Origin: Thermoplasmatota archaeon | GTDB taxonomy: Archaea; Thermoplasmatota; Penumbrarchaeia; Penumbrarchaeales; EX4484-36 | DNA: 64,000 bases | Assembly (NCBI GenBank): GCA_029932465.1 | Contig: JAOZQA010000003.1 | Location: forward strand, 6,477 to 70,476 | Reading direction: 5' to 3' | Part shown: in pieces, positions 2,118 to 48,650 of the stretch | Layout: the number at the start of each line of letters is the position of its first letter | Numbering within the stretch: the stretch's first letter is position 1 | The notes under the pieces: model-generated | The model's database searches: none | Seen by the model: only the letters and a program-made list of their open reading frames with translations | Told to the model about the DNA's origin: nothing | Position numbers and translations under genes: made by a program

Positions 2118-2199
2118 GGGAATCACAACTCCACAAAACGTTTATATAGAGACTTCTGGTTTAACGCACTACCTCACAGTTTAAAAAGAGGTGTATCGT

Positions 2200-5100
2200 A
2201 TGCGTTTGAGATACCGTGGAAGCACCTGTTATACTGGAAGGCTCGCATTCAACCTCTTTATGGCCCTTGTCCTTCTCCTGCCCCTGATCAAATTCCCCGG
2301 GGCTGGAGGAGATCATCAGGTGGCAGAATCCCCTGCCCCCCCCTCTGTACGCGATGCTGAAGGCTGGATCACCTACATGGGGGACCTTCAGCACACGGGA
2401 GTTACCACCTCGGAGATGCCGCTTAAGCCCGAGGTGCTCTGGAGAGCCTCAGTGCCCCATCACACCCGCTCGTCCCCGCTTATATACAACGGCAGGGTGT
2501 ACATCGGTTCCGGGGACGGGAAGCTATACTGCTTTGACATTCAAGACGGCAGACTGCTCTGGACTTTCAGCACATACATAAACCAGTCCAACCCGGGGGG
2601 CGAGATCCGCTACACACCCACCCTCCAAAGAGGAGTTATATATATCACCACGGAGAGCTACGGCATCTATGCGGTGAACGCCACGACTGGGAGACTCATC
2701 TGGTATACCATCATGCCTGTGAGGTCCGTCTCTAGAACGCCGTCTCTTGCCGGGGATGTAATGGGAATCTCCGGAGCCAGGGTGGATAAGGCTTATTTTT
2801 ACGGCATAAATGCTTCAGGCGGCAGTGTCCTTTGGACCTTTGAGTTCTCCTCCCTCGTGGTGGGAATCGCTGGGGAGCCCGCCACCGATGGGGAGTTTTT
2901 CTACTTTGGAACAGATGCAGGCTACTTCTACGCCCTGGATAAGGACGGATTCGCAGACGGAAACGATGGGTATCAGGGGGAGACCAACACCACGTTGAGG
3001 GACGGCGATGTGGTGTGGGTATACAATGCCACCAGGCCGGTGGATGGCTCACCCACAGTAGCTGGAGGAGTAGTGCTCTTCGGCGACAGAGGTGGCTATC
3101 TCCACTGCCTGAACCGTCTAACAGGAGAGCCGCTCTGGGTGAAGAAGGTGGGTGATATGATATCAGCGGCTCCGGCGGTCTACCAGGGTAAGGTCTACAC
3201 CCTCACAATGAGCCTCTATTACATTGGCGGCTTCCCCTACCGCGGCACTAAACTTGCGGCCCTGAGGCTCACTGATGGATCTGAGATCTGGAACTACACA
3301 CGAACCAAGCCCCCCGAAGGGTCCGCTCCCGTCACCAACGGCAGGTACATCACCTTCGGTCTAGCGGACTCTAAGCTCTATCTGATAAATGCCACGGACA
3401 TCAGGCTTACGGAGGAGAACAGGGAGATCTGGAGGATAGATCTGGGGGCGCCCGTGCGAACGGTACCCGCAGTCTCAGACGGCAGGATAGCGGTCGCTAC
3501 TAATGGATCGGTTTACATGCTAGGGGTGCCGGAGATATACCTCTATCAGGTGACCTCCTCCAGCTATCTCCCGTATCACGGCGAGATGGCAGACTTCACA
3601 GCCCACCTCTGGAACAACGGTACTGTGGGGGCGGAAGTGAACGTCTCCTTCTGGAGGACCAATGCCAGAAACAAGCCGAAGGTACTTTTGGGTTATAAGG
3701 GAGTATATATCCCCCCAAGGTCATTCGGCGAGGTTACCATCACTGCACCTGTAGACATATCAACCCCTTACGTCTGGGCTCTTGTGGAGTCGACGTATCC
3801 AAGGGATCCCAGGCTTGAGAGAACCCCTGTGGGGGCACGGCTGAACCTCACGGTCCTCAGCCAGATTGAATGGGGATGGTACACCCCGGGGAAGAATAAC
3901 TTCGGCAACCTTTACGTCCCCCAGAGCCCTACATCAACAAAAGAATACTGGCATGTGGACCTCCCTGGTACGCCAGAGGGGGAGCCTCTCGTTATCAAAG
4001 GAGCGGTTGTGGTAGCTACCCAGCAGGGTCTTGTGAGGGCCTACTCCCGATATCTTGCGGGGGGTTCGGATGCTCCAACTATCCTCTGGGAGTGGCAGGC
4101 GCCCCAGGGTCTCTCATGTCCCCCTGTGGCTCTAGCATCAACTGTCTACTCCCCCTCAGACAAGGATATCGTCATTGTCCCTCTTCAAGGTGGGGAGGTC
4201 TGGGCCCTTGACCTCAGCGGCTTTATGGACATCTCCCAGCCCGGGGGCCCCAACGACGGCCCCTACACCTCGGAGCCGAGCCCCCAGGGAACTCACGCAG
4301 ATATCGTATGGTCGGCTTCCCTGCCGGGAGAGGTGAAGAGGGTAATGCCGGCCTTCGGAAGAATTTACGTTCTTACAGCTGAAGACACCCTCTATGCCCT
4401 TGACGATGACAACGGAACTGTCACCCTCACCCTGCCTCTTCAGGAGATCACGGATGTTCTATTCGGCGAGCGATACCTATACGTTGCCAACTCCTCGGGA
4501 GCTCTGCTCTTCATGGAACCTGCAACTGGAAAGGTGGTTTACAGCCTCAATCCCACCAATGAATCAATAACCCATCTCCGATACTCCTCGGGGTGGCTAT
4601 ACACCCTCACTGAAACCCACCTGATCGCACTGGACGGAGACCCTGATGACAACTCCGACGGGAAGATAGACATAAATGATACCGATGAGGGGATGACCGA
4701 CGCGGAGGTGGGTCCTATGGACCTCATTTTCGTCACCAACCTCACCGCCTCTCCGACGGGGTTCTTCTGTAGTGGTGAAGACCTCGTACTCATAGGCGAG
4801 GAGGACGGGATTGAGGTCTATGATGTTGAGAAGCGCTCTATGAGATACCGCGTGGAGGAGGACTTCCGCGGGTTTGTTGGAGCTTCCAAGTCTCTAATCC
4901 TCTACAGTTCCAGCGGGGTGAGCCTTCTCACTCTTCCCCCCACTCCAAGCCTCCCTGAGACGCTCTGGTCAGTCAGCATAGAGGCCTTCTCCCTCTCCTT
5001 CCTTGACGGCTATCTGTACATCTACAGGCCCGGGGGTCTCACGGTTCTTGGCTCTGAGAACAAACCCCCTTGGGTCTCTATAAACTCCCCCCGGGAAGGC

Positions 5101-6480
5101 GATGTCTTCTTTACAGAGGAGGAGATTGAGGTGGATCTGGGAGGAAGCTATGACCCGGACGGAGACGAGATAACCTTTGTGATAATCTCTGACAAGGAAG
5201 GAGTTCTCTATCGTGGCGGGGCCGACGGTGCGTCCATTGTCTTCTCGGAGGAGGGAAGGCACTTGCTTACCGTGAGGGCTGAAGACCCCTACGGCAGCTT
5301 TTCCGTGAAGAGGCTGAACGTCACTGCTCTGGAGAAAAAGATAACCCTCTTCCCCTCCCCTGCCCTGAACGTCGCTGTCCTTCTCTGCTACGGCGGCACG
5401 GGGTATGTGGAGTTCTCCGAGGCTGATGTGGCGGGAATTGAGGGAAGGGCACTCGTCCAGCCCGTGAGCATGAGGTTCGTACCTCTTTTTGAGAACGAGC
5501 CCTACCTCATAGCCTGGGCCAACATATCCTTTGACTCCTCTGGGGTCCTTCCGCCTTTTGGGATGAACCTCTCTAGGGCGGGGGTATTCAAGCTTGTGAA
5601 CGAGGAATGGGTTAGGATGAGCGGGGGCAGGGGCCCCGGGGAGAGGGAGTACTGGGCCAACACCACAGAATTCGGAAGCGCTGAGATGACAGTGGTTGCT
5701 GGGATCCTGGACAACCAGAGGCCATCTCTTTTCGGAGGGACGGCCACCCGGCTCAGAAGGGGAGTGTACGACTTCTCGATCTATTATCTGGACTACGACG
5801 ACGATGAGCCCTTAGAGGTGGTACTGGTTGTGGATAACCAGACCGAGTACAGCATGGTCCAGGAGGACCCCTTCGCCTATGAGTACGCCAAAGGCGTGAA
5901 GTTCGTAGCTCGCTCCGTGCGGGTGCCCCGGGGCGGAGGGGAGTGGCACACCTACTACTTCTATGCCAGGGACAGCTACCTTGGTGGGAAGAGCAGGTAT
6001 TATTCGCTTCACATACTGCCCAATCACCCGCCGGTTCCGGTCCCCGGGGTTTCCATGAAGGTGAAAGTGAACCAATTCGTGACCTTCAATGGGAGCCGAT
6101 CCTATGATCCCGACGGCGACCCCCTCTCTTACTACTGGGATTTTGACATAAGGGACGGTTTCCAGGTGGAGAAGGAGGGGGCGGTGGTGGTTTGGATGTT
6201 TACCGAACCTGGAAACTATACTGTGACACTTAAGGTAGACGACGGTGAGCTCAACGCCACGGCGTACATTCATGTGGAGGTGTACGAGCCGGAGAAGGCA
6301 AGCCCGCGAGGCCCCTCTGTCCTTTTAGGAGCCGCAATCCTCATGCTTGTAGTGATAATCTTCGTGGCGGTATTCCTTCTTGTAAGGAAGCACAGAGAAG
6401 AGGCTGAAATTGAACGCATGTGGGAGGCGGAAGAAGAGGAGAGTGCGACCTATCGCAGGAAAGGCAAAATCGAGGAGTGA
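2200..6480 (+). CDS. Large surface protein: N-terminal signal/TM, PQQ-like beta-propeller repeats, two PKD domains, C-terminal TM anchor with a charged tail
   Basis: Repeated G-x-(V/L)Y-x-G-S-x-DG-x-LY-a-L/D-x-x-(T/D)G and W-propeller blades in the first ~600 aa. PKD signatures GGSYDPDGDEITF and FNGSRSYDPDGDPLSYYWDF. C-terminal LLGAAILMLVVIIFVAVFLLV followed by KHREEAE. More than 20 N-x-S/T sequons. SD AAGAGGTG lies 7 nt before ATG 2200. Confidence 0.7.
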   Translation: MRLRYRGSTCYTGRLAFNLFMALVLLLPLIKFPGAGGDHQVAESPAPPSVRDAEGWITYMGDLQHTGVTTSEMPLKPEVLWRASVPHHTRSSPLIYNGRVYIGSGDGKLYCFDIQDGRLLWTFSTYINQSNPGGEIRYTPTLQRGVIYITTESYGIYAVNATTGRLIWYTIMPVRSVSRTPSLAGDVMGISGARVDKAYFYGINASGGSVLWTFEFSSLVVGIAGEPATDGEFFYFGTDAGYFYALDKDGFADGNDGYQGETNTTLRDGDVVWVYNATRPVDGSPTVAGGVVLFGDRGGYLHCLNRLTGEPLWVKKVGDMISAAPAVYQGKVYTLTMSLYYIGGFPYRGTKLAALRLTDGSEIWNYTRTKPPEGSAPVTNGRYITFGLADSKLYLINATDIRLTEENREIWRIDLGAPVRTVPAVSDGRIAVATNGSVYMLGVPEIYLYQVTSSSYLPYHGEMADFTAHLWNNGTVGAEVNVSFWRTNARNKPKVLLGYKGVYIPPRSFGEVTITAPVDISTPYVWALVESTYPRDPRLERTPVGARLNLTVLSQIEWGWYTPGKNNFGNLYVPQSPTSTKEYWHVDLPGTPEGEPLVIKGAVVVATQQGLVRAYSRYLAGGSDAPTILWEWQAPQGLSCPPVALASTVYSPSDKDIVIVPLQGGEVWALDLSGFMDISQPGGPNDGPYTSEPSPQGTHADIVWSASLPGEVKRVMPAFGRIYVLTAEDTLYALDDDNGTVTLTLPLQEITDVLFGERYLYVANSSGALLFMEPATGKVVYSLNPTNESITHLRYSSGWLYTLTETHLIALDGDPDDNSDGKIDINDTDEGMTDAEVGPMDLIFVTNLTASPTGFFCSGEDLVLIGEEDGIEVYDVEKRSMRYRVEEDFRGFVGASKSLILYSSSGVSLLTLPPTPSLPETLWSVSIEAFSLSFLDGYLYIYRPGGLTVLGSENKPPWVSINSPREGDVFFTEEEIEVDLGGSYDPDGDEITFVIISDKEGVLYRGGADGASIVFSEEGRHLLTVRAEDPYGSFSVKRLNVTALEKKITLFPSPALNVAVLLCYGGTGYVEFSEADVAGIEGRALVQPVSMRFVPLFENEPYLIAWANISFDSSGVLPPFGMNLSRAGVFKLVNEEWVRMSGGRGPGEREYWANTTEFGSAEMTVVAGILDNQRPSLFGGTATRLRRGVYDFSIYYLDYDDDEPLEVVLVVDNQTEYSMVQEDPFAYEYAKGVKFVARSVRVPRGGGEWHTYYFYARDSYLGGKSRYYSLHILPNHPPVPVPGVSMKVKVNQFVTFNGSRSYDPDGDPLSYYWDFDIRDGFQVEKEGAVVVWMFTEPGNYTVTLKVDDGELNATAYIHVEVYEPEKASPRGPSVLLGAAILMLVVIIFVAVFLLVRKHREEAEIERMWEAEEEESATYRRKGKIEE

Positions 6481-6605: not shown

Positions 6606-9600
6606 ATGGCGAGGAAGGCGAGAAGAGGCGAAAGAAAAAGAGCCAGAGCAAGACGGGAGATTGCCCTTGGGGGTATTGCAAAGAGAGCCGCTGAGCAGGT
6701 GGCCAGGAGGGAGGAGGAGATACGTGAAGAGCTGGTTAGCCTGAAGGGCTACCTTAGGAGGGAGAGAAGGACTGTTCTCGCCCTGCTTGGCATATTCCTC
6801 CTCGCTTTCTTCCTGCGCACGTACGTGTACTACACCCTATCCTTCGAAAGCTGGCCCCCTGTCACGGCCGGAAACGACCCCTATTACCACAAAAGGGTCA
6901 TAGACTATATTCAGACTTATCATACCCATATAAGACATGACAGCATGCTCAATTACCCGGTGGTGGGAGGAAACCCGAGGCCCCCCATATTCGACTGGTC
7001 TATAGCACTTCTCGGAATGCTACTTGGCCCCATGTTCGGTGGCGCTAGAGCGGTGACGTGGATCATATTTGAGTTCTACCCTGCCTTCTGGGGCGCCCTC
7101 ACAGTGATCCCAGTATACTTGCTAACCAAACAGGCATTCGATAAGAAAAGCGGACTCCTGGCATCGCTTTTCATCGCCCTCACACCGGCGCACATCGAAA
7201 GGTCCCCCTTAGGTTTCTCCGACCACGACTCTTTTGTCGTCTTCTTTGTGGTACTCTCTCTCTACTTCCTTACCCGCTCCTTCTCCCATCTGCCCGAGAA
7301 GAAGTGGGTGGCGGATTATAGGAAACCTTCTGAGGTGATCTTGGGTCTGAAGAGGTTCTTCGAGGAGAACAAGCTCGTCACCGGATATGCCCTTCTTGCG
7401 GGTCTCTCTCTCTCGGCCATAACGCTCACCTGGGAGGGGTTCCCCTACATCATGGTCATTCTGGTGGTCTACTATTTCATCCAGCTTCTCATCGACCGCT
7501 TCCGGAACACGGACTCTTTGGGGCTTTTCATCGTTATGACAATTGTTCTTGGACTCCCCATGTTCCTCTCCCTGCCCTACTACTACCTGTTCTCTATAAC
7601 CACCTGGATGGTAGCGTTTTTCCTTCTCCTTGCGGTGCTCTTCCTGGGCCTTATCATTGTTCCCACGAGGGACTACCCCTGGCTCCTGGTCCTGCCCACC
7701 CTAGGCGTCATCATCGCAGTGGTATACCTAATCCTCGCCAAGGGCTTCCCTGAGATGGCCCAGCTCATATTCACTGGCAGGGGCTATTTTGTGAAGAGCA
7801 AGCTGTACAGCACAATCGCTGAGGCACAGCCTCCAGATATAAGCAGGGTGATATTCTCCTTCGGCGTGGCGGGTTTCTTCTTAGCCCTCACAGGCATTCT
7901 CCTCTCAATAATGCAAATACCCAAGAACCTCAAACGGGACTACCTTCTCATTGTGGTTTGGACCACCGTAGCAATATATATGGCCTTAAGCGCCGTGCGT
8001 TTCGTCTTCAACGCCACCCCCGCCTTCGCAGTCCTTGCGGGATGGGTCACCTGGAGAATCGTTGAGAAGTTCGATGCTAAGATGCAGAGCCTTTCACTCT
8101 CCCTTCTCGGCGCCGGGACATTCCTTGTGAACCTTGGCATCATAAGTTATGCTTCCGACAAAGGTCTAACGGATGAGTTCTACGTCAAATATTTCCCCTA
8201 CATCGTCTTCGCTATCGCCCTGGCGATTGGATACGGCTACTATCTGCACATGAAGTACAGGGTCAAAAACCCCCGATTCAAGCTGAGGAAGGTTACCGTA
8301 GGCGTGCTTGTGGGCTTCTTTATAATGTACCCCTACGTGGTGGTGGCTTCCGACGCTGCGGTTCCTTATGAGAAGAAGCGCGACATAGACCCTACAGGGG
8401 AGTACATGGGTGCCTTCGGCCACAGCCTCCCCGGGGAGTACTGGATTGCCTCTTTTGACTGGCTTTCAAAGCAGGACGCAGACCTTCCCCCGGAGGAGAG
8501 ACCTGCCTTTATATCCTGGTGGGATTATGGGTTCTGGTGCGTCTATATGGGGCAACACCCCACAGCAGCGGACAACTTCCAGTACGGGTATCAGTTTGCA
8601 GGCTCCTTCATCGCCTCCACAGATGAGGATGAAGCCATCGCCTTGATGATAGCTAGGATATTAGAAGGAGACTTCATAGGAAATCAGGGTGAGTTCTCAA
8701 AGGAAGTAGCCGATATTATGAAGGATTACCTCAACTACACTACTGACCCCTCAGACTACATGAGGCTTGTTGACATCTACTCCCACCCGGACAAATATGT
8801 TGATGAGGTGGAGGCTCGCCCTGAAGTGTATGGCCACTACGTGGACATAACTCCCATGAATGCTAAATACGCCGCCGCTAAGGTCCTCATACTCTCTGGA
8901 GGAGAGGAGAGGATGGTGGAGCTCTACGGGAGGCTGAGGGAGGCCACTGGCAAATCCCTCCGGTATTTTGCCGTGGACTCCAGACTCTTCCCCTTCAGCG
9001 CCAGCAACACGGGGATTTTCTACGCTCCCATAAAGCTAGCGGACAGGGATCTGAACGACTACTTAGAATATTACGCCTACGCACAGAAGAATTACGGGAC
9101 TGATCAGAACCCTGACTGGAGGGACCTTCCCGACAACCCCATCTCAATGGACGAGCTTGAGAAATGGGCGAAAGATGAGCCTCACAAATACAGGGTCAAA
9201 AGATATGAACTACACTACACGGAGAACTTCTACAAATCCATGTTCTACAAGGCCTACATTGGCTATGGGCCGGAGGACATCGGTATGAGCATGGACGGGG
9301 TCTCCGTACCTGCCATGAAGGGGTCACTGCAGAACTATCCGCCCATGCAGGGCTGGAACATGAGCCACTTCCGCCTAGTCTACAGGACTATGTACTGGTC
9401 GCCCAAGGACGAGAAGAACTCCACCACGGAGGACTACATACCTATGTCTTACAAGGAGGCTGTAGAGAAGTACGAGAAGGAGGGGGGCGACATAAAGTCC
9501 GGTCTCGGGCAAGGAGTTTACTACCTCAAGTATTACGACGGGGCAGTCATAAGCGGAAGGGTCCTTACAAAGAGCGGGGTTCCGGTGCCGGGGGTGAGAA

Positions 9601-12600
9601 TCACGATACTTGACGAGTACGGGATTCCCCACGGCAGTGTCATCACAGATGAGGAGGGCAGATACTCCCTTCTAGCACCCTTTGGGGAGTGTACGCTTCT
9701 CGCCACAATGGGGGAGCTTGAGACGGCGTGGGACCGACTTTATCAGTATAAAGCAAAGCCCGACTCTAGGGAACCTGAGAACCTTCTCAACCTGACGAGG
9801 ATCACCATAACTGACGAGCAGGCCATGAGGGTCAAGGATTGGCAGATCAGAAGGAACCTTGAAGTGGATGATCTCACTGCTGAGGGCAGGATATACTTTG
9901 ACAATGACGACAGTGGAAGCTACGACGATAAGAAGGACACCCCCCTTGAGGACGTGAAGGTGACCTATACAATGCTGGGCGGAGACTATCAGGCGGTGAA
10001 TTACACCAACTTCCAGGGATATTATTCCTTCTACAGCATGCCGCCGGGGCATTACCATGTTGAGATGGAATACATGGGGTTCAAGAAAGTTCTGAGCGAG
10101 GACCTTGAGATATCCCCATCGTCTGAGAAGAAGCAGGACGGTGCCTTAAAGCCGGCCCAGATACACGGTTACGTAAGGCTACACGGGGGGGGTCAGGCGG
10201 TGGGCGCTGAGGTGAGGCTCACAGAGGCAGAAGGAGGGCGCGATTACAGCGCCGTGACCGATGAGAACGGCTACTACTCAATAGAGAATATGCTCCCCGG
10301 GGAGTATAAAGTAACCATAGACCGGGAGGGCTTTATGATAAACGAAAGCAGCGTGGGGCTTCAGGAGGGCTCGAATGTCTCCCATAACCTCACACTCCTA
10401 CCAGTGTCAACATGCACTGTGCGTGTGACTGTCCCCGGGGAACTGGCGGGGGGTGAGGAGTTCTCACCGTCAATGGCCCTTGTCCGATTCGTCATGAGGG
10501 ATACGCCTGAGTGGAGGTACTCCTTCTTCACCGGTGAAAATGGAATGGTGGAGGCGACCCTCCCGAAGGGAATCTATGCCGTGCATGTGGAGTACACCTC
10601 CGGTGAGAGGACCTTCGCCGCCATAGGCGAGGTCGACACGAGGATGGGAGGTACGTTCTTCCTTAATATTACCCTTGATGAGGCCTTCACCGTATATGGG
10701 AATGTCACGAAGCTGGAGAACATGGCTATGAAGTACCAGTGGATACGGTTCACTCCGCAGAACTCAACCGGGGTGACCTACGCCTTCACTGGCCCCAATG
10801 GCCTCTTCCAGATAGCTCTTCCCAAGGACACATACGCCGTCTACATCGAGGAGGAGATCCCCGGGTCTATAAACACACATCAGTTCTTTGGGTGGCTCTA
10901 TTCGCCCCCGGGGGAGTACGTGGAAGTGCACTACCACGCGCTCAAATCCGCCAAGGTGAGTGGGCGAGCATTCTGGGACCTGAACGACGATGGGATTTAC
11001 ACCGATGCTCAGAACAGGACGCTCAGGGAGTTCCTTACAAATCCCGCAGGTAACGTCACTGATCTAGCGATGGAGGGAGTGAGAGTCACCGTGAGCTCGG
11101 AGAACGGAACGATTACCACATATACCGACGCGAACGGGGAGTACGAAGTCAACCTCATGCCTGGGATCTACAGGCTTGAGGCATCATTTGGGGGGATGGT
11201 TTCCGAGCCCGCCTATATAAGCGTTGAGGATGAACCAATAACAATGAACGAGGGACTTAAGGACATAAACCTGAGGCTCTCCTCGGAGCCCCGGGAGGTC
11301 TCCCTTAGAGTGTTCTATACAAGGGATGGAGAGAGGGTACCCGCCTCTGGGCTCCCGGTGAAGGTGGAGTCCCTTCTTGACTACATCACATTAAACGAGA
11401 CCTTCGTAGCGGGCCTTGAGGGCGAGCTCACCGTATCCCTCACCCCCGGCTATTACCGACTGACGGTGCACACTGAATACCCCGGGGAGCCCAGGGTTTT
11501 GTACAATGGCTCTTCGAGCATCGTTGTACCCCCCGGTGAGGGGATTTACCCTATAGAGTTTGAAATAGAGAAATGGGTGGAGCAGGAGTTGACGGTCAGA
11601 TATGACGGGGTGGACCTGAACAGTGTTACGCTTCGCTTCATATCAGTCTCCCGGGAATACTCCTTCGTTACGGATCAAGAAGGGAGGGCAAGGGTATATC
11701 TTCCAGAGGGCAACTACACCGTAGCTCTAAGCCACCTCTTCGGCGTCCACCACCTGCTCTACATTCAGCAGCATTCACTCATAGAGGGCATCTGGGACCT
11801 TCCAGAGAGCGTAGAGCCCGTGGAAGGCTACGAATTCAGCGGAAGGGTTGTGGTAGAGAGCGTCTATCTTAAAGACTACGCCCTCAGCCTCAAGCTTCCC
11901 TACTACAGTGAGAGCGTTCCCCTGGACTCCACCGGCGCTTTCACAGCATATCTTCTCCCGGGGAGAGTATACAACGTCTCCTTCGACCTGAAGGCTGGTG
12001 TCAATGTGGAGATTCTCTACGTATACTCGGACACCATTGAGGCGGATGGTGACATGACTGGCGTTGAGATCCGGCCCCGGGAATATGTGAAGGTGGAGGG
12101 CACTGTATTCTACGACGAGAACGACGACCACTTTATAGATAAGGAGGAGAGGAAGGGAGGCGCCAACATCACCTTCACGGACGAGGTCTTCGGAGATGTC
12201 TACACCGTCCAGGCGGACGAGGAGGGGGACTACAGCATATATCTTCCGAGGTCCCTTTTCAGTATAGAGGTGGAGCTCGAGGGCTTCCAGAGGGAGCCCA
12301 AGGACTACGCTAGGAAAATCAATACCACCGTGGAGGTGAAGAAGGACATCCCCGTGCTCCCCTCTCCTCTGGAGGTAACTGGCCTGGCGTTCTACGACGA
12401 GAACGGCAACGGCTTCAGGGACACCGGTGAGATACTCCTCCCGGGGGCGGAGGTAAGGTTCATCGCCATAAGCTTCACAGGGGAGGACGCCACCGTTGAG
12501 GTCTCCTATGATGGAACATATACCGCATACCTCATGCCAGGGACCTACACCGTCTACGCCCTCTACGAACGGGCGGGTCAGCTAAGGTATTCCTGCATTC

Positions 12601-14093
12601 GGAATGTTACGACGGAGATAGGCTCCCCACCGGTCCAGCTCAACCTTACCATGAAAGATGCGAGGGAGTTTACGGGAACAGTCTTCTACTACGACACACT
12701 GGGAAAACTTGTAGATAACCTGACGTCCGAGCCAGGGGACGAGATTCTCTTCTCACCTGAGGGGGAGGCTGGATATCTTAGGGTGAACTACAACCGTGGG
12801 GTTTTCCGCGCCAAACTGCCTGTGGGTAACTACTCGGTGAAGATCGTTACTGTGAGGGAGGAGCTAGGTATTTCGATGACCTATCGGTACGAGGGCAAGA
12901 TTACCCTGAGGCTCAACACCACGGCGGATGAGCTTGCCTTCAGGCTTGAGAAGGTCAAAGAATACATAATAAAGATGGACACTGTGGGGGACGAGTACAA
13001 GGATATCTTCATGAAACCGTATCAGACCCTTACAATACCCCTCTACATTGAAAACCGCGGCAATCTGCCTTTTAAAGTAACCTTCTCCTCTTCGGATGTA
13101 CCTGAAGGATGGAAAGTGGAGTACTCTGTGACGGAGATGCACCTTGAGATCGGCGAGAAGAAGTACCTTCACGCCAACATCACCGCCCCCGCCAAGCCCT
13201 TGGCCCTGAACAACATGAAACTTGAGGCCCGCTCTGAGGGCGGGTACAGAAGCAACGTCCAGCTTCTGGTTCGAACGCCTCAGTACCACTCCTTCGAGAT
13301 AATAACTGATGCACCCACCTACAAAGGGGTCGCTTTCGAGCAGAGGCTGACCTACAACCTAACTGTGAAAAATACCGGTAACGGGGATGAAATAGTCCAC
13401 CTCAGAGTTATACCACCGCCGGAGGAGATAGAGGGGTGGGAGGTTCTAATAGAGGGAGATAAGTTGAGCGCAGAGGGCAAGAACCTTTCCCTGGGAGGTT
13501 TCGGAGAGAGACAGCTTCACATCGAGATCACCGTTCCCAACTCCACCCAGGCCTCCTACGGAGACAGCCTACATCTGCTTATAACAGGTGTAGATAGGCT
13601 CGGGCTAAAGAATAAGAGCGTTGAGATGACCTTCGAGATAAGACGTCCCGACCTGAAGGTGTTGGACGTGAAGTTCACAAACCTTGACCTCAAAAACAAG
13701 GTGCTCAATCGCACTGTGGTGGCCAATGTGACTGTTGCCTCCTTCGACAGAGAAGTGGCTGGCGTGAGAGTGGTTCTTAAGGTGGATGGGAAGGAAGTTG
13801 GTAACAAGACCGTGGACTATATACCTCAGGACGGCGCGGAGCATGTAGAGTTCGAATTCAACGTGACAATAGAGGGCATAGAGGAGGACTCCAAACATAC
13901 CTTTGAGGTGGTGGTGGATCCACAGAACGAGATCGAGGAAGAGAACGAAGCGGACAACCTCTACAGGGTGAAAAAACTTGTAGGGGAGGAGCCGCCTAGC
14001 CTTCTCAATCCCAGAGTGATAGCCTTTGTGATATCTATTGTGGTTATGACGGTGATTCTGATCGTCTGGTATCGGAGGAAGCATCCTTTCTGA
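6606..14093 (+). CDS. aglB: Archaeal oligosaccharyltransferase AglB/STT3. N-terminal multi-TM catalytic core, fused to about 12 CarboxypepD_reg/Cna-B-like beta-sandwich repeats, CARDB/Ig-like domains, and a second C-terminal TM anchor. 2,495 aa.
   Basis: TM1 followed by GNDPYYHKR (first-loop acidic motif). About 13 TM helices. WWDYGFW motif at aa ~640. The C-terminal 1,700 aa contain repeats of G-R-V-x-D-x-x-G-x-P-V-x-G-V-x-V and YDENDDGxxD..E motifs. Terminal VIAFVISIVVMTVILIVWYRRKHPF. The start is uncertain; the Arg-rich N-terminus is preceded by GGTGA. Confidence 0.8.
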   Translation: MARKARRGERKRARARREIALGGIAKRAAEQVARREEEIREELVSLKGYLRRERRTVLALLGIFLLAFFLRTYVYYTLSFESWPPVTAGNDPYYHKRVIDYIQTYHTHIRHDSMLNYPVVGGNPRPPIFDWSIALLGMLLGPMFGGARAVTWIIFEFYPAFWGALTVIPVYLLTKQAFDKKSGLLASLFIALTPAHIERSPLGFSDHDSFVVFFVVLSLYFLTRSFSHLPEKKWVADYRKPSEVILGLKRFFEENKLVTGYALLAGLSLSAITLTWEGFPYIMVILVVYYFIQLLIDRFRNTDSLGLFIVMTIVLGLPMFLSLPYYYLFSITTWMVAFFLLLAVLFLGLIIVPTRDYPWLLVLPTLGVIIAVVYLILAKGFPEMAQLIFTGRGYFVKSKLYSTIAEAQPPDISRVIFSFGVAGFFLALTGILLSIMQIPKNLKRDYLLIVVWTTVAIYMALSAVRFVFNATPAFAVLAGWVTWRIVEKFDAKMQSLSLSLLGAGTFLVNLGIISYASDKGLTDEFYVKYFPYIVFAIALAIGYGYYLHMKYRVKNPRFKLRKVTVGVLVGFFIMYPYVVVASDAAVPYEKKRDIDPTGEYMGAFGHSLPGEYWIASFDWLSKQDADLPPEERPAFISWWDYGFWCVYMGQHPTAADNFQYGYQFAGSFIASTDEDEAIALMIARILEGDFIGNQGEFSKEVADIMKDYLNYTTDPSDYMRLVDIYSHPDKYVDEVEARPEVYGHYVDITPMNAKYAAAKVLILSGGEERMVELYGRLREATGKSLRYFAVDSRLFPFSASNTGIFYAPIKLADRDLNDYLEYYAYAQKNYGTDQNPDWRDLPDNPISMDELEKWAKDEPHKYRVKRYELHYTENFYKSMFYKAYIGYGPEDIGMSMDGVSVPAMKGSLQNYPPMQGWNMSHFRLVYRTMYWSPKDEKNSTTEDYIPMSYKEAVEKYEKEGGDIKSGLGQGVYYLKYYDGAVISGRVLTKSGVPVPGVRITILDEYGIPHGSVITDEEGRYSLLAPFGECTLLATMGELETAWDRLYQYKAKPDSREPENLLNLTRITITDEQAMRVKDWQIRRNLEVDDLTAEGRIYFDNDDSGSYDDKKDTPLEDVKVTYTMLGGDYQAVNYTNFQGYYSFYSMPPGHYHVEMEYMGFKKVLSEDLEISPSSEKKQDGALKPAQIHGYVRLHGGGQAVGAEVRLTEAEGGRDYSAVTDENGYYSIENMLPGEYKVTIDREGFMINESSVGLQEGSNVSHNLTLLPVSTCTVRVTVPGELAGGEEFSPSMALVRFVMRDTPEWRYSFFTGENGMVEATLPKGIYAVHVEYTSGERTFAAIGEVDTRMGGTFFLNITLDEAFTVYGNVTKLENMAMKYQWIRFTPQNSTGVTYAFTGPNGLFQIALPKDTYAVYIEEEIPGSINTHQFFGWLYSPPGEYVEVHYHALKSAKVSGRAFWDLNDDGIYTDAQNRTLREFLTNPAGNVTDLAMEGVRVTVSSENGTITTYTDANGEYEVNLMPGIYRLEASFGGMVSEPAYISVEDEPITMNEGLKDINLRLSSEPREVSLRVFYTRDGERVPASGLPVKVESLLDYITLNETFVAGLEGELTVSLTPGYYRLTVHTEYPGEPRVLYNGSSSIVVPPGEGIYPIEFEIEKWVEQELTVRYDGVDLNSVTLRFISVSREYSFVTDQEGRARVYLPEGNYTVALSHLFGVHHLLYIQQHSLIEGIWDLPESVEPVEGYEFSGRVVVESVYLKDYALSLKLPYYSESVPLDSTGAFTAYLLPGRVYNVSFDLKAGVNVEILYVYSDTIEADGDMTGVEIRPREYVKVEGTVFYDENDDHFIDKEERKGGANITFTDEVFGDVYTVQADEEGDYSIYLPRSLFSIEVELEGFQREPKDYARKINTTVEVKKDIPVLPSPLEVTGLAFYDENGNGFRDTGEILLPGAEVRFIAISFTGEDATVEVSYDGTYTAYLMPGTYTVYALYERAGQLRYSCIRNVTTEIGSPPVQLNLTMKDAREFTGTVFYYDTLGKLVDNLTSEPGDEILFSPEGEAGYLRVNYNRGVFRAKLPVGNYSVKIVTVREELGISMTYRYEGKITLRLNTTADELAFRLEKVKEYIIKMDTVGDEYKDIFMKPYQTLTIPLYIENRGNLPFKVTFSSSDVPEGWKVEYSVTEMHLEIGEKKYLHANITAPAKPLALNNMKLEARSEGGYRSNVQLLVRTPQYHSFEIITDAPTYKGVAFEQRLTYNLTVKNTGNGDEIVHLRVIPPPEEIEGWEVLIEGDKLSAEGKNLSLGGFGERQLHIEITVPNSTQASYGDSLHLLITGVDRLGLKNKSVEMTFEIRRPDLKVLDVKFTNLDLKNKVLNRTVVANVTVASFDREVAGVRVVLKVDGKEVGNKTVDYIPQDGAEHVEFEFNVTIEGIEEDSKHTFEVVVDPQNEIEEENEADNLYRVKKLVGEEPPSLLNPRVIAFVISIVVMTVILIVWYRRKHPF

Positions 14094-14101
14094 GGTTTAG
14101 G

Positions 14102-15937
14102 TCATAGAACTGAGTAGAAGTCGGGCACTCCTTCCTCCCCTAAGGAGAACTCGACGCTTCTTCCCTCACCGAGGAAATAAAGGAAGAGGTGGGAGAGCTG
14201 CCCGCTTAGCAGGTCAGCACTGCTGGGAAAGCCGTGGGGCTGGGCGAGTATGAATCCTCTTCTCTTGAGCTTGTCCTTAAGCGCTCGGATGGCGGGTACT
14301 GTGGATTCGCCTTCTGTAAACCCTTTGAGGGCCAGGCCGAACTGCCTCTTCTTTATGAGTTCTTTTATTTTCTCATTGATCCCGTCAGGCACAGCCCCCT
14401 CTAGAAGCGCAAAGAGGAACGGCACCATCCCCTGGACCTCCCCTCCATATGTGAGTCCACGGCCTCCTATGCCCCCGCTGTACCTGAAGGAGTACTTGAC
14501 GGACTTCTCAAGGCTGTAAGTAGTTCCGAGTTCCTTCTTTATCCGCCGAAGGATCTCCTCCTCCCCCAGGTATCTTTTGAGAGATGCCTCATCCAGGGTT
14601 ACGGTGCTCAGGAGCTCCTCAAGTTCCTCCTTTCTGAAGCCCCTAGCACCCCACAGTCCTTTCTCCCCTCTCTCTTCCATGACAATGTTTCTCCAGCCGT
14701 GGAAGTAGAGGAGTGACGCTAAGATACCCTTCACTTGGTCCGACGACTGGCGGGGTAGATACACAAGAAGGGGCGGGAGATTCCCCTTAAGAAGACCGTC
14801 TATCGCAGCGCTCTTCCTTCTCTCGTAGGCATCAATACTCTCCTTCAGGTTCTCCTCCTGCCTCTTCAGGTTTATGATCTCCTCCACATAGTATCTCAAA
14901 CGCTCCCGCTCCTCCTCACTGGTGCCAACATCCTGTCTCTCTCTGAGGTTAGCCCTCAGGTCCTCCCAGCGCTCCCTCGACCTTTCCCAGTCTTCCACCG
15001 GGAGGTCCTTGAGCCTGATAGGCTTCGTCCTGAGAAGCTCGTTCAACCTCCTTCTCACGTTCTCAAGGTTCTTATAGAGTAGCGGTAGGGTCCTGTTGGC
15101 CTCAGAAAGAACCAGTCCCACGAATCTAACGGCCTTGACCGTTATCTCCTCAGCTACCCTGCTGAGCCTCCACGCTTCAAGGGCTTTCTCAGAGGTCACA
15201 CCAACGTACCGCTTGACATCCCCGGGGTTTGAGAAGAGCTTCCCCACCACCTCAAGTTTTTTTTCCCTCTCCCCTAGCAGAAGTGAGGCGCTGACGGAAA
15301 GTAGAAGGAGAGCCCTCTCCCTCTCACTACCCCCTACCCACCTCCTCAGAAGGCTCTTCTTCTCAGAGAGCTGCCAGAGGTTGTCAGAGAGAGCAGCAAG
15401 GTGCAGCAGAACCCTCCGATACCTGTCGTCCTTGAATGGATCGGAGAGGGCGAACTCTATCATGCTCTTCCTGCCCCCCTCGGCTATATGAAAAAGGTAG
15501 GACGAGAGAAGGGCGGTGCATGAGGGGTATGTAGCTATCCCTTTATCGGACTCCCCCTCCCCTTTCTCTCGGGGTGGGCTGACGATGAAGTGTCTCTCGT
15601 TCAGAAGCTTGGTGTTTGTGTGAGGGAGGTGGTGGTCTATCACCACGACGTTCTCCTTTTCCCATTCTGGTCTTCTTATGTCCAGAAATACGTGAAGGAG
15701 GCCGTCAGCCAGCTTCACACTGAACATTTCGGAATGGTCAAGGGGGAGGAAAGCAAGAGGCTTCCTGCCTCGCAGGCGCTCTAGGACGTCCTTGAGCAGA
15801 AGTGCGCTGTTCAACCCGTCAACGTCATTGTGGAAATGGACCTTTATCCCGTCGTAGGTCTCCAAATGGCCTCTTAGGGCTTTGAGAAAGCTCTTGGCCT
15901 CTTCTGCATCTACGTCGCACGGCACCTGCTGGGACAT
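14102..15937 (-). CDS. DHH-family phosphoesterase (RecJ/GAN-like N-terminal DHH domain, central coiled-coil insertion, DHHA1-like C-terminal region)
   Basis: HFHNDVDG (motif I/II), VIDHHLPH (DHH motif), a Gly-rich SGGIGGRGLTYGG near the C-terminus, and a ~200-aa charged heptad-like segment in the middle. Confidence 0.5.
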   Translation of the reverse strand: MSQQVPCDVDAEEAKSFLKALRGHLETYDGIKVHFHNDVDGLNSALLLKDVLERLRGRKPLAFLPLDHSEMFSVKLADGLLHVFLDIRRPEWEKENVVVIDHHLPHTNTKLLNERHFIVSPPREKGEGESDKGIATYPSCTALLSSYLFHIAEGGRKSMIEFALSDPFKDDRYRRVLLHLAALSDNLWQLSEKKSLLRRWVGGSERERALLLLSVSASLLLGEREKKLEVVGKLFSNPGDVKRYVGVTSEKALEAWRLSRVAEEITVKAVRFVGLVLSEANRTLPLLYKNLENVRRRLNELLRTKPIRLKDLPVEDWERSRERWEDLRANLRERQDVGTSEEERERLRYYVEEIINLKRQEENLKESIDAYERRKSAAIDGLLKGNLPPLLVYLPRQSSDQVKGILASLLYFHGWRNIVMEERGEKGLWGARGFRKEELEELLSTVTLDEASLKRYLGEEEILRRIKKELGTTYSLEKSVKYSFRYSGGIGGRGLTYGGEVQGMVPFLFALLEGAVPDGINEKIKELIKKRQFGLALKGFTEGESTVPAIRALKDKLKRRGFILAQPHGFPSSADLLSGQLSHLFLYFLGEGRSVEFSLGEEGVPDFYSVL

Positions 15938-15946: not shown

Positions 15947-18900
15947 TCACAGCTCATCGTCTTCATCCCAAACGACATATCTTCTGCGCCTTCTGGGGGT
16001 TCTTTCCTCCCCCGGCTTTTTGAACGAGATCTCCTCAACCTCCGGAGGGGGGACGGAAGGTGCCTCTTCCTCTTCCGGGTATTCCTCCTCCGGCGCCTCC
16101 TCGATCTCACTCAGTTTTTCCTCTTCTTCGGGTATCCCCTCACCAGCCCCCCTCATAAACTCTTTAAGGTCCTCCTCCTTGACCTCCACCGCTGCCGGCT
16201 CCACCGGGGACGGCATAGTCTCTTGGGTGGTCACCGCCGGGGGTGCGGCAGCCTCACCCTCCACCATTTTCTTCAGCGTCTCCACGTCTGGCTCCACCCC
16301 GTAGAGCTCTTTGTACAGCTTCCTCTGTTCAGCGAAGGGGTCCTCTACCATTCTCTTTTTCAACCTCATGTTGTAAATAAGTGCCCCTGCTACAGTTATT
16401 ATTACCATGGCCACGATGGTAAGCGGGAGATATTCACCGAAGACCTTCTCCCTCAGATAGGCAAGCGCTGGGTATTTGGACCTAGGCTTGACCAGGACCT
16501 CAACGCTGTATTCAGGGGAGGTGTAGCTTGTCTGTCCATCCTCACAAACAACTCTGAGGCGGAAGCTGTATACCCTCGCTTTCGTATCCTTCTCCGGAGT
16601 GAAAGCGACTCTCAAGGGGTATACTGCCCCGGGGGGCAAGGTGAGGGAGTAATCCTTGTAGTATAGTTCCAGTTTGATCCACTTCTCACCCGCCCCCTCC
16701 CCTTCAAGGTACACGGTCACGTTGTCGGACAGGTGTGCTTCATTTGTAATGGACACCTCCACCACGAGGGCATCTCCTCTCTCCAACGACCATCTTCTTG
16801 GACCAGTGAAGTTGATGCCGAAATCTATAACCTTGAAAATGTCTCTTTTTAAAGAGGAGAAGTTCCCACCGTCCCAGGCGAGGATCTCCACGTGGTATAT
16901 GCCGTAGGTGAGGGGCTCGGTGAAGTTGAGGTTAGGGCTCTTGCACCATTTCCAGGGAACTATGTCTCCTGAAGCCCAGTCCCTGCCCACTTGAACAAGA
17001 TAGCTCACTGCCTCCCCCTCCGGATCCACAGAACCTCCCCACGAGATCCCCGGGGCGGTGTAGGCGAAGAGGCTCTTGAGAAGTGGGCCGGGGGCTGGTG
17101 GGGGCAGGTCCCCGCTGGAGAGCACGGTGAGGTTGGCCTTGAGGACGTTGGAATTGGAGTGTGAATCATTGGCCACCACCTCCACGAAGTATTTGCCTAC
17201 CCTCAGGTTTACGCTTGCCGGAACGTCTATGAAGTTGTACCTTCCGGTGCTGACCCAGTCCATCACAGTGGTTCCAAAGGTGGCTTCTAGGATTCTCACC
17301 CTGTAGGTTATAGTATCGTTCTCTATGTCCTCTGCTGGATCCCACCATATATGTGGGGTTCTGCTGGCGGTGGTGGAGGGATATATCCTCCCTGTGAGAA
17401 CAGGGGGATAGTTGTCAGGGATTCTTAAGGTGTACCTCACCGGCCCGTAGACGTACCACCCAGTGTCCGCCAGGTCCTTGGCCCGGAACTTGATCATGTT
17501 GAGGTTACCCTCTGTGAGCCTGAAGTGGAACCATATGGTAACGTCACCATGCTCTTCTACAGTGTAGTTTTCCACCTTCTTCCAGGGGGTATAGGGGAGG
17601 ACTTCTGAGTGACTATAACAGTATTCAATGGAAGAGATGTTCACCCCTGACACCTCAAGATCCGGCTGATAGAGGTCCCTATCGTAGACGATAATTGAGA
17701 CGTTTATGTCAGGGAATATCTGAGTTTCGTACGGGCTGGGCTGGAGGTTTCTGAACTTCACCTTTATCGTGTCTATCCAGATGTTCACAGGAGGTGACTC
17801 GTTCAGGTTCCCCACCCTGTCAGTGAACCGCCATTTCACCCAGTTGTACTTTCCTTCGTTGGCCTTGACGTCCAGGTAGGCGTAGACGCTTCCGTTGGGA
17901 AGAACGCTGACATGAGGAAGATCTCCCACCCCAGTGTAAATGTCCGAGCCCAGCGTTTTGATGTAGGCTCTTATACTGCCGGGGGCTACTCCTGCCACCC
18001 CGATATCCTTTATCATGAGGTAGCATCTCACATAAGAGGTGTTGTACCAACGGGGGATTATGGGGCCGTAGTCCAGCACTATGGGCTTTGAGAGGTCAAG
18101 TATGGGCCCCGGGTGTACAGGGGAGATGAGGGGCTCTGTCATATCCCCTGACATCACCTCATAACGGTAGTAGATTCTGCCACTACTCCACTCCACTGTG
18201 GTGGTTGCAATCCAGAGGGAGCCCGCCGTATTGTCTCTCTCGCTCTCGGCGGGTCTCATGACGGTTGCCTCTCCTATCTGTTCTGTGCCGTTTTTGTCAG
18301 CGAAGAGCAGGAGGCGGGGATAGCCGGCTGAGGGGTCATCACCATCTATGTCCCTGTACCAGAGGGTGAAGGTGAACTCCGTCTCGTTTGTCCCAATCTC
18401 GGGGGTGAAGCCCCTGTCCTCGAAGATGGGCGGGCGGTTCTGACCGGTCAGGGTCTCGCTGTAGCGGGCGAAGTATATGTCCGAGCGTGTGAAGAGCTCG
18501 TCTCTGTGGTCAGCCCACACAACAAGGGGCCTTCCTATGGAGTTGAAGGCGAGGTGGGGATCCTCCTGCTTTGTCTCGTCGTCGGCGGTGCCAAGCGTCC
18601 GCTGGGTGTCGTCCACCCTCCTGGCGCCCGTCCATGTGGTGCCGTTGTTTATCGTGTAGGTGAAGTAGATGTCTCCTTCGTCGTGAGAACGGTCCACCCA
18701 GGTTATTCCCACCATCCCCGGGGAGAAGACGGCCACCCTGGGGTTTAGCTCAAGGCCTCCTTCAGGGCCGTTATAGGCTAGCATGTTCATGGTGAAGTTC
18801 CTACCATCCCTGGTGGTGGAGTAGTAGATGTCGTAGGAGCCGAGCCTGTTATCGGACCAGACTATGTATACCAGGCCCGTAGAGTCCACTGCCAGGTCCG

Positions 18901-19723: not shown

Positions 19724-19783
19724 CATATTACCTCCAGATGGCCAGGGGCTTATAAGCATGGGGAATATAAAATATTTGGCAGG

Positions 19784-23320: not shown

Positions 23321-24691
23321 TCAGAGTAGCTCCTTGAGGGTCACCACTGGGAGTCCCCCCTCTCTGTCAATGGTGGGCACCATGACCCCCGTTGGGGGTT
23401 TCACACCGTAGAAGAGGGGTGTATTGTCAATCAGCCTGTATTTGAAGACGATGTCTGAGAAGTTGGCAACGGCCCCGGCCAAACTCAGATCCGGGCGCGC
23501 AATGGAGATGCCGAGGTAACCTCGACTTCTGATAAATACCCTGGTCCGCAGGAGGTCTTGGGGGGTGGCCGTGGTTCCCATTCGGTACTCCAGGGTGTCC
23601 AGTCCAACAAGGTCCATAAGGGGTCTTGAGTACCCCTGGGTGAGCTCTTCAAGCTCTGTTCTGTAGAGCTTCTGCGAACTCCTATCTGTCATGGGGATTA
23701 CCAGGGGATTGCCCGGGGAGGCCCTGAAGTAGTCCACGAACCTGACGTGCTCCTCTAATATACCCTCGGGGAGAAATCTGCTCAAGTCGCTGTAGATGCT
23801 CTCTGGGGTCTCCCCCCCAGGGGGCGTTATGAAGACAACACCGTCGTTCTGGATGAAGTTTAGGATAATGGGGCGCAGGATAAGCATAAGCATCTCTTCG
23901 CTGACCTCGAAGGAGGCCTCTATCATTATATACTGGCCCCTTTTGAACCCGCCGTTTAAAATATCATCGAGCTTTGGTATCCCGCTGGAGTAGCGGTTGG
24001 GAGGGTGGGGTGTTTTCTTCCACATTATCTGTTCCTCTGGCTTGAGAACAGGCATCTCAGAGAACACGCGGAAGTTTCCGCCCCGCAAACTGAAGAGATA
24101 CTTTCTCCTGCCTATTTCCACTCCCCTCATTTTAATGATCTCAAGCTCCCTTACCTTTCTCCCGTCAACTTCAGTGTGACCCAGACTAACTATACCTCCT
24201 ACAAGAGGGTCGAGGAAGGATTCTCTCGAGGTCTCCTCCACGATGATGAGGGAGAGATTCTCCCTCTGGACAACATCAAGGGTGGCCCTCACCATCCTTG
24301 AAGGGTTCTCGAACCTCTCAAGGAGGCTGTCAATAGTATCTATCATCACCACCTTCGGTTTAAAATCGCTTTTTACAAGGTCAGTGAACTCCCTCAAAAA
24401 CCAGTTGGGGTCAGTTATCTTAGAGTTCTTGTCAAAGAGCTTCGCCTGCTCCCTTAGCGGGGACCCCTCCTTCAGATGGGGGAATTGAAGGGAGAGCTGG
24501 TCCTCCTCCACCCGGGTGAAGAGCATGACGCCTCTCTCATCTTTTGTAAGTTGTCTCACTATCTCGATTGCTAGGAGGGTCTTTCCCGTTCCCGTGCCTC
24601 CCTTAAGGAGAAGGACCTCTCCTGTGTGCGTTCGGAAGAACTGCTCTATTTCCACAGGTACATTCTGCACGACCGGATAAGCTTCTTTCAT
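23321..24691 (-). CDS. KaiC/RecA-superfamily ATPase, two-domain, second domain without a P-loop
   Basis: Walker A GGTGTGKT near the N-terminus, Walker B-like VVMIDTID, and a duplicated RecA-like fold in the C-terminal half that lacks GKT. Confidence 0.55.
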   Translation of the reverse strand: MKEAYPVVQNVPVEIEQFFRTHTGEVLLLKGGTGTGKTLLAIEIVRQLTKDERGVMLFTRVEEDQLSLQFPHLKEGSPLREQAKLFDKNSKITDPNWFLREFTDLVKSDFKPKVVMIDTIDSLLERFENPSRMVRATLDVVQRENLSLIIVEETSRESFLDPLVGGIVSLGHTEVDGRKVRELEIIKMRGVEIGRRKYLFSLRGGNFRVFSEMPVLKPEEQIMWKKTPHPPNRYSSGIPKLDDILNGGFKRGQYIMIEASFEVSEEMLMLILRPIILNFIQNDGVVFITPPGGETPESIYSDLSRFLPEGILEEHVRFVDYFRASPGNPLVIPMTDRSSQKLYRTELEELTQGYSRPLMDLVGLDTLEYRMGTTATPQDLLRTRVFIRSRGYLGISIARPDLSLAGAVANFSDIVFKYRLIDNTPLFYGVKPPTGVMVPTIDREGGLPVVTLKELL

Positions 24692-48617: not shown

Positions 48618-48640
48618 GTGGTATTCTCTATATGTGAGGG

Positions 48641-48650
48641 TATATAAATT
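48641..48650 (-). promoter_or_regulatory. TATA box for the leaderless surface-protein gene
   Basis: AATTTATATA (minus strand), centred ~28 nt upstream of ATG 48617. Confidence 0.35.

Follow-up and report, generated by a model that had tools for sequence, protein, structure and literature searches.

Here we describe a giant form of the archaeal oligosaccharyltransferase (OST) AglB, encoded at 6606..14093 on the forward strand of a 64,000-nucleotide stretch of DNA from a Thermoplasmatota archaeon (contig JAOZQA010000003.1; the whole stretch that we analysed is called the window). We consider it probable that this gene encodes a long-form Thermoplasmatota AglB, in which the enzyme is extended by a glycosylated, membrane-tethered stalk and by a fused partner protein, with a structural role as the function that we prefer. 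AglB is usually seen as the archetype of an OST with a single subunit, some 600-1,000 residues long; the window gene is a single unbroken open reading frame (ORF) of 2,495 codons that runs from ATG to a stop codon at 14091-14093. A preliminary description of this DNA, made from the sequence alone, had proposed that an AglB core continues here into a repeat region, and the frame indeed passes without a stop from the core into about 1,500 residues of beta-sandwich domains and a second, C-terminal transmembrane (TM) anchor. The peptide strings quoted in that description were all located (GNDPYYHKR at residues 89-97, WWDYGFW at residues 638-644 and the tail VIAFVISIVVMTVILIVWYRRKHPF).

Residues 1-964 are a complete AglB, assigned to this family by the STT3 profile, the catalytic motifs and the fold. 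The assignment of the N-terminal part to STT3 holds, with Pfam STT3 (PF02516) matching residues 79-482 at 65.7 bits (cut-off 24.5), while the AglB_core-like and STT3-PglB_core families give weak matches at residues 628-710. The top NCBIfam match, and the closest family there, is the archaeosortase A-associated OST family TIGR04154 (archaeo_STT3), which covers residues 58-821 at 237.8 bits (E value 2.6e-70) with 617 of 831 profile positions matched and does not reach its cut-off of 450. Searches of the PDB with the core sequence returned Archaeoglobus fulgidus AglB-L and eukaryotic STT3A/B. An AlphaFold2 (AF2) model of residues 1-975 has a predicted local distance difference test (pLDDT) score of 87.2 and a predicted template modelling score (pTM) of 0.85, and Foldseek places A. 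fulgidus AglB first among its matches (7e9s, 3wak and 5gmy; E value about 1e-20), followed by STT3 and PglB; the top 19 PDB matches all belong to these three.

The core is laid out as a basic cytoplasmic segment, a membrane domain and an extracellular globular domain. The first of these (residues 1-55, MARKARRGERKRARARRE...; 6606..6770, forward strand, as are all features of the gene given below) is a low-pLDDT helix in the model, and its MARR start is kept in the family consensus. The GT-C transmembrane domain (residues 56-590; 6771..8375) is delimited by Pfam STT3, a hydrophobicity scan, AF2 and Foldseek. The roughly 13 TM helices proposed earlier stand as the canonical set, both in the AF2 model and in the alignment to A. 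fulgidus AglB, but that count left out a probable extra helical hairpin (residues 492-553; 8079..8264) between canonical TM12 and TM13, modelled as helices 492-519 and 530-553 and without counterpart in the phmmer alignment to 3waj. The hairpin region is variable across the family and is deleted in the orthologue of Methanomassiliicoccus luminyensis. The extracellular catalytic domain (residues 591-964; 8376..9497) is recognised by Pfam and by PDB sequence matches to 3vgp and 3vu0.

The catalytic motifs are in place. We aligned 43 sequences, in which the orthologues are 37-54% identical to the query, one near-identical sequence apart. Invariant among them are G89, D91 and Y94 of the external-loop-1 motif GNDPYYH (residues 89-95; 6870..6890), where D91 is the catalytic aspartate; all three residues of the DxD-type metal-binding motif D206-H207-D208 (7221..7229); T403, I404 and E406 of TIAE (residues 403-406; 7812..7823), the TIXE motif of external loop 5; and all five residues of WWDYG (residues 638-642; 8517..8531), which is present in nearly all of the 246 family members that we inspected. 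The helix aligned to the DK/MI motif reads STDEDEAIALMIARIL (family consensus ExEAIAL), which is neither a canonical DxxK nor a canonical MxxI, the register here being uncertain. From these features, the core would be expected to transfer a lipid-linked glycan to the Asn of N-X-S/T in exported proteins at the outer face of the membrane.

Beyond the core, the whole-protein Pfam scan gives repeated CarboxypepD_reg matches (187.7 bits; cut-off 32.3) and SdrD_B (77.4 bits; cut-off 29.7). The earlier estimate of about 12 CarboxypepD_reg repeats agrees with an iterated family hidden Markov model (HMM), which finds 12 such domains at residues 965-2133: D1 (residues 965-1082; 9498..9851), which Pfam recognises at 40.8 bits against 32.3, and D2-D12 (residues 1083-2133; 9852..13004), eleven divergent CarboxypepD_reg/SdrD_B-like beta-sandwich domains. 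Two immunoglobulin (Ig)-like domains follow, D13-D14 (residues 2134-2330; 13005..13595), both all-beta in the AF2 model with pLDDT above 90, and then the CARDB domain D15 (residues 2331-2462; 13596..13991), which scores 35.1 bits in the whole protein and 43.9 bits when the C-terminal 362 residues are scanned alone (cut-off 22.7). Of the several CARDB/Ig-like domains proposed in the preliminary description, this is the one CARDB above the Pfam threshold; the second, D13, is NEW3-like and falls just short (NPCBM_assoc, 24.3 against 24.4), and the third is Ig-like by model only. The AF2 model of residues 1809-2495 (pLDDT 91) is all beta-sandwich up to a single helix at residues 2469-2492. A search of the PDB with the stalk sequence gave one marginal match.

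Conservation is distributed unevenly along the chain. Averaged over 68 orthologues, identity to the query is 44% in the TM core, 48% in the external AglB domain and 46% in D1, then 17-26% in D2-D12 and 23-28% in D13-D15 (32-40% in the nearest clade); mean pairwise identity in the external AglB domain is 47%, equal to that of the TM core. Gapped positions make up 1-12% of D1-D14 and 22% of D15 in the same orthologues. Six distant orthologues have D1 at the matching position (BLASTP E values 1e-20 to 1e-39); as strongly conserved as the enzyme, the domain behaves as part of it; it probably belongs to the enzyme ectodomain. Within the nearest clade, identity is 30-46% in the mid-stalk and rises to 60% in the terminal TM helix and 65% in the cytoplasmic tail. 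The mid-stalk thus behaves as a spacer whose length is conserved and whose sequence is free, and the membrane-proximal end is under a constraint of its own. The highest identity between two domains inside the window protein is 30-44% over 43-82 residues (BLASTP), which is what would be expected of ancient and divergent repeats that are not expandable. Four acidic (Y/F/W)D.N.D loops at domain starts (residues 1097, 1456, 1836 and 1929) are SdrD_B-like and kept in the family consensus; loops of this kind in the B repeats of SdrD are Ca2+-binding.

The chain ends in a TM anchor (residues 2471-2489; 14016..14072; hydropathy 2.86, AF2 helix 2469-2492) followed by RRKHPF and the stop. The protein is thus predicted to be held in the membrane at both ends, as had been proposed: its N-terminus is basic and cytoplasmic, an outside position of the C-terminal domain follows from the GT-C topology, and RRKH comes directly after the terminal helix. 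What the preliminary description overlooked is that this anchor, real as it is, forms together with the CARDB domain the fused copy of a partner that other genomes encode separately and in translational coupling with aglB. In the cultured M. luminyensis B10, a 245-residue gene lies directly 3' of the giant aglB, the stop and start overlapping by 4 nt, and encodes a protein made up of a signal peptide, a CARDB domain (45 bits) and, at the C-terminus, a TM helix with a basic tail. By tblastn, the partner gene is immediately 3' of aglB in 36 fetched loci, and by ORF analysis AglBs of 2,050-2,480 residues are followed, at -19 to +38 nt, by a same-strand gene for 239-351 residues with a signal peptide and a TM helix. 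The same analysis finds no separate partner gene downstream at loci where AglB has at least 2,520 residues, which is the window's clade.

To compare the two arrangements directly, we built an HMM of 258 positions from 30 downstream partner proteins. It matches the window protein at residues 2380-2492 (13743..14081; E value 1e-12, 40.9 bits, HMM positions 145-252), a segment that comprises the CARDB core, the juxtamembrane linker, the TM helix and the basic tail and ends three residues before the C-terminus; this is the sole match in a six-frame translation of the whole window. Among AglBs, the model matches only long forms, always at the extreme C-terminus and ending 1-4 residues before the last residue; P0036 is matched at an E value of 7e-18, and the matches of P0080 and P0026 cover most of the model. 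Homology to the partner, together with the lack of a separate gene where AglB is long, indicates that the window protein is an AglB fused to its conserved partner. Because the partner is conserved, co-translated and fused in several clades (a Rosetta-stone pattern), the CARDB membrane protein is very likely a physical partner of the enzyme.

The split arrangement of M. luminyensis B10 and about 35 other Thermoplasmatota genomes differs from that of the window in that the AglB keeps its own terminal anchor (a TM helix, or PGF-CTERM in one sub-family) and the signal peptide/CARDB/TM partner is a second polypeptide, whereas the window protein is a single chain. An N(W/P)R motif before the TM helix, which we considered as a possible sorting signal, occurs in no protein of the fetched loci other than AglB, a result that says little at a range of ±10 kb per genome. 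A PGF motif is absent from the window tail, which reaches no sorting-signal model at cut-off (best, Heimdall-CTERM at 17.3 against 24), whereas some giant orthologues carry a true PGF-CTERM: the tail of P0053 passes TIGR04126 at 26.1 bits (cut-off 24.5). PGF-CTERM-ended giant AglBs, for example PIPGFEAIFMFAALIGVALIMRRRR, include P0049-P0058, P0062, P0064, P0066, P0071, P0078, P0092, P0094, P0095 and P0098 and those at loci L011, L017, L039 and L045, and the Loki-CTERM model is passed by P0053 and P0057. In this sub-family an archaeosortase would cut the enzyme at its distal end and attach it there to a lipid anchor.

The giant AglB is no oddity of this window and instead appears to be the standard AglB of most Thermoplasmatota, one cultured species included. 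A full-length search found an identical protein (P0001) on a JGI metagenome contig, a protein of 88% identity from an assembly made independently and, besides these two, over 100 clusters of collinear orthologues of 2,050-2,800 residues. The best 120 homologues listed are mostly of 2,100-2,800 residues and alike in domain content; about 20 clusters reach 97-100% query coverage at 36-39% identity, and more distant clades are 27-35% identical. The long-form family is defined by an AglB core, the conserved D1, about 11 more CarboxypepD_reg domains and a C-terminal anchor in collinear order, and the window protein has all of these. When the core alone (residues 1-960) was searched against 1.84 billion representatives at 50% clustering, 285 proteins were found at E values of at most 1e-30, and most of the best 150 exceed 2,000 residues.

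We also sought related loci with two peptide patterns, one of them [YF]xTIAEAQ[AP]P, in collections with one genome per species. These species-representative genomes hold 483 loci with a relative, and our detailed locus results refer to the best 80 of them. All 80 come from Thermoplasmatota metagenome-assembled genomes, spanning Thermoplasmata, Methanomassiliicoccales, Poseidoniia/MG-III, DHVE2 and Ca. Saliniplasma, and the complete genes among them encode 2,053-2,552 residues, each ending in a hydrophobic helix and a basic cluster. The M. luminyensis B10 orthologue has 2,173 residues, of which 1,822 align with the window protein in core and stalk at 31% identity; at NCBI it is labelled 'carboxypeptidase regulatory-like domain-containing protein', and the hundreds of public copies carry this or other automatic names such as 'STT3 domain-containing'.

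Further length classes surround the long form. Close AglB relatives of about 1,100-1,260 residues, which could be an intermediate or reduced form, have two to three CarboxypepD_reg domains and no C-terminal TM anchor (P0174, P0176, P0181, P0187, P0189, P0192, P0196, P0202, P0205, P0213, P0218, P0219, P0227, P0238, P0241 and P0243). Two longer relatives, P0230 (3,194 residues) and P0245 (3,146 residues), have about 400 extra residues ahead of STT3, with WWDYG at about residues 975-993; the P0230 cluster holds 11 sequences, nine of them full-length at 3,194 residues. In a clade of about 2,040-2,115 residues (P0198, P0207, P0209, P0210, P0212, P0215, P0216, P0220, P0221, P0224, P0237 and P0244), the stalk is barely recognised by the CarboxypepD_reg HMM, P0210 having one sub-threshold Pfam domain. 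The terminal TM helix and basic tail are kept there, so this clade would share the overall design with domains that are more diverged or different.

The composition of the stalk resembles that of a secreted glycoprotein. Residues 961-2465 have an isoelectric point of 4.66 and contain 31 N-X-S/T sequons, compared to 8.3 ± 2.7 in composition-preserving shuffles, and the family as a whole has a median of 2.4 sequons per 100 residues. Likewise enriched, three to four times (z = 4.6-7.8), are the other proteins of the window that are predicted to lie at the surface, and cytoplasmic window proteins have sequons at or below expectation, except adenylosuccinate lyase (z = 3.9, four sequons). The enrichment in the stalk and in the surface proteins points to an extracellular stalk and an active N-glycosylation system, and we infer that the stalk is itself a substrate-type, N-glycosylated surface glycoprotein outside the cell.

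Taken together, these features suggest the following organisation. D1, the eleven fast-evolving domains and the three Ig/CARDB-like domains would all lie outside the cell, and the terminal TM helix would return the chain to the membrane, so that the stalk would form an arch of constant length, held down at both ends. The last CARDB domain and TM anchor would be the fused equivalent of a small type-I membrane protein positioned near the enzyme; the enzyme would normally work with this CARDB partner, and in the window protein both would be one polypeptide. Our leading suggestion, which we hold tentatively, is that the arch is a structural glycosylated component of the envelope that keeps a constant distance above the membrane and retains the partner module beside the enzyme. 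We prefer a structural or spacing role because length is conserved and sequence is not, because both ends are anchored and because the composition is like that of an archaeal surface glycoprotein. The stalk may also be a scaffold, as the preliminary description suggested.

Several observations weigh against this reading. The argument for a spacer draws solely on conserved length with unconserved sequence, and the pTM of the AF2 model is just 0.59 for the last six domains, so that the shape of the arch is not fixed by it. Fold searches with the stalk return generic multi-Ig matches at TM-scores of 0.1-0.2 (ciliary central-pair proteins, alpha-2-macroglobulins and integrins). The partner HMM covers the window protein with its second half alone (positions 145-252), although D14 may correspond to the partner's first domain, and pairing is not universal, as four short- or mid-length loci (L013, L022, L032 and L041) have no recognisable downstream partner. 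Finally, a role of the giant AglB as the housekeeping or sole OST is no more than possible, its one support being that no two of the 80 retained loci share a contig. Among the window ORFs that we scanned, there is no second STT3 and no archaeosortase.

A serious alternative, given how tightly D1 and the partner are linked to the enzyme, is that the stalk and partner are built-in accessory subunits of the OST, comparable in function to the non-catalytic subunits that the eukaryotic OST has. They would keep or protect freshly exported chains close to the active site, or link the enzyme to the machinery of export. D1 is as conserved as the catalytic domain; a conserved membrane partner, coupled in translation and in some clades part of the same chain, classically marks a physical complex; and in the eukaryotic OST, the lumenal domains of several accessory subunits, themselves type-I membrane proteins, are beta-sandwiches. 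However, neither stalk nor partner has a Pfam match to the ribophorin, OST48 or Ost3/6 families, a substrate-binding surface would hardly be expected to consist of eleven spacer domains that evolve fast, and characterised AglBs act as single subunits. We regard such a platform as rather improbable, if worth keeping in view. At 11 loci (L082:17437-17760 in M. luminyensis and ten others), a 107-residue WCGPC thioredoxin (40-56% identity) is encoded just 3' of the aglB-partner pair. We considered it as an Ost3/6 analogue and rejected it, as both a signal peptide and TM helices are lacking and OST3_OST6 gives 26.5 bits where 27 would be needed; its position is probably lineage synteny.

Less likely still is the bifunctional OST/adhesin that the preliminary description had also offered, in which the beta-sandwich array binds surfaces, polysaccharides or cells in the manner of MSCRAMM/Sdr-type or Ca2+-stabilised adhesins. 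The SdrD_B score, acidic loops that look like Ca2+-binding sites, a domain family named for cell adhesion (CARDB) and a mid-stalk that evolves as fast as exposed surface proteins typically do would all suit such a function. It fits poorly with a chain tethered to the membrane at both ends, in which Pfam, hydropathy and AF2 reveal no distal ligand-binding domain, and with a domain number and order that are fixed across the phylum (gap fractions of 1-12% in D1-D14 and 22% in D15), whereas the repeat number of adhesins varies; the repeats are moreover ancient, as judged from their mutual identity, and without counterpart as DNA repeats. Compared with the structural and substrate-handling readings, an adhesin role fits worst and is unlikely.

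A catalytically dead AglB paralogue, serving as a mere membrane anchor for a surface protein while a separate short AglB glycosylates, would account for the TIGR04154 score below cut-off, but it is effectively excluded: no catalytic motif varies among the 43 diverged orthologues, conservation along the protein is highest in the core, and the nearest relatives of the core in the 1.84 billion representative proteins are almost all giant. An assembly or frameshift artefact that joined aglB to a downstream surface-protein gene, for which only the unusual length and the metagenomic origin of the assembly speak, is likewise effectively excluded and the least credible reading of all, since the collinear architecture recurs in more than 100 independent clusters and 80 species-representative genomes, closed chromosomes and an isolate genome included, and since GC content is uniform along the gene and no tandem or long direct DNA repeats were found within 6606-14093, which makes a repeat collapse or a chimeric join unlikely.

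Among known systems, the closest is A. fulgidus AglB-L (3WAJ, 3WAK, 5GMY and 7E9S) and its GT66 relatives, which share the GT-C fold (TM-score 0.60 on the target at the Foldseek E value given above), at a sequence identity to AglB-L of only about 16%. AglB-L, STT3 and PglB also share the external-loop-1 Asp, the DxD, TIXE and WWDYG motifs and a C-terminal globular domain outside the membrane. Whereas the solved chains have about 700-935 residues, the window protein adds about 1,530 residues in 15 beta-sandwich domains, a second TM anchor and the probable hairpin. The stalk recalls archaeal S-layer or surface glycoproteins, such as the S-layer glycoprotein of Haloferax volcanii with its PGF-CTERM, in being an acidic, sequon-rich array of Ig-like domains with a C-terminal TM/PGF-CTERM anchor, but our sequence and fold searches gave only a weak shared-domain match and S-layer proteins are not fused to enzymes.

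Two further comparisons concern the repeats themselves. Eukaryotic NOMO has 12 transthyretin-like domains and a C-terminal TM helix, and so resembles the window protein in its twelve CarboxypepD_reg/transthyretin-like domains, its TM anchor and its place on the exoplasmic side of the membrane that holds the OST. The NOMO families PF22902 (20.6 bits) and PF23194 (19.4 bits) nonetheless stay below their cut-off of 27 in the window protein, which indicates relatedness at the clan level only and neither common descent nor shared function. The SdrD-type B repeats of Gram-positive MSCRAMM proteins are similar in their SdrD_B domains and in the acidic D.N.D loops, here at four domain starts; the window protein differs in having no ligand-binding A domain or sortase motif, in its fixed repeat number and in the tethering of both ends.

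In the neighbourhood survey of the 80 loci, no gene next to aglB other than the partner is conserved family-wide, and there is no adjacent agl glycosylation cluster; outside the window's clade, the neighbours are housekeeping genes such as those for RNA polymerase, pyrF and purD. Convergent to aglB in the window are genes for a 611-residue DHH-like protein (14102-15937, reverse strand), kept in position at eight loci of the long-form clade, and for a 1,270-residue, sequon-rich BNR-repeat surface protein (15947-19759, reverse strand), kept at seven. Directly 5' of aglB (2191-6480, forward strand) is the gene for a 1,429-residue protein with a PQQ-type beta-propeller, PKD and a C-terminal TM anchor, which has 24 sequons (z = 7.8) and whose position is not conserved at other loci. 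Two proteins without a Pfam match are probably uncharacterised surface glycoproteins: one of 876 residues with a C-terminal TM anchor (46401-49031, reverse strand; sequons z = 6.2) and one of 884 residues (49576-52230, forward strand; z = 4.6). The window also encodes a 1,445-residue protein with an N-terminal, zinc-ribbon-like CxxC...CxxC start and TPR repeats that is otherwise unannotated (55876-60213, reverse strand), and a KaiC/GvpD-like P-loop ATPase, part of which matches GvpD basic region 2 (23321-24691, reverse strand), with no gas-vesicle genes nearby among the ORFs scanned.

The preliminary description knew of no AglB of such architecture, and the literature that we searched, as far as it was accessible to us, contains none either, although an earlier remark in the main AglB phylogeny is possible. 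The enzyme family and the public, automatically annotated sequences are known; what is new is a phylum-wide, uncharacterised giant form of AglB with a conserved partner. If an entire phylum of ecological importance, with the Poseidoniia of the sea, the Methanomassiliicoccales of gut and sediment and the DHVE2 of the deep sea among its members, uses an enzyme of 2,000-2,800 residues together with a conserved partner, models of archaeal N-glycosylation would be incomplete, as would those of how OST complexity evolved. A large, conserved and glycosylated surface structure would then have been overlooked in mostly uncultured archaea, where it goes under the label 'carboxypeptidase regulatory-like' and probably exceeds the length that routine structure databases take in. 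Many members of the Thermoplasmatota lack a conventional wall. It is conceivable, although we would not call it likely, that the Thermoplasmatota OST is no single-subunit enzyme but a conserved two-component machine, a stalked AglB and a CARDB subunit that are fused in some clades, and that its 15-domain glycosylated arch is a major load-bearing or spacing element of the envelope. This is directly testable, because the cultured M. luminyensis carries the split version; if true, it would provide a prokaryotic OST that has accessory parts of its own and also serves a structural function.

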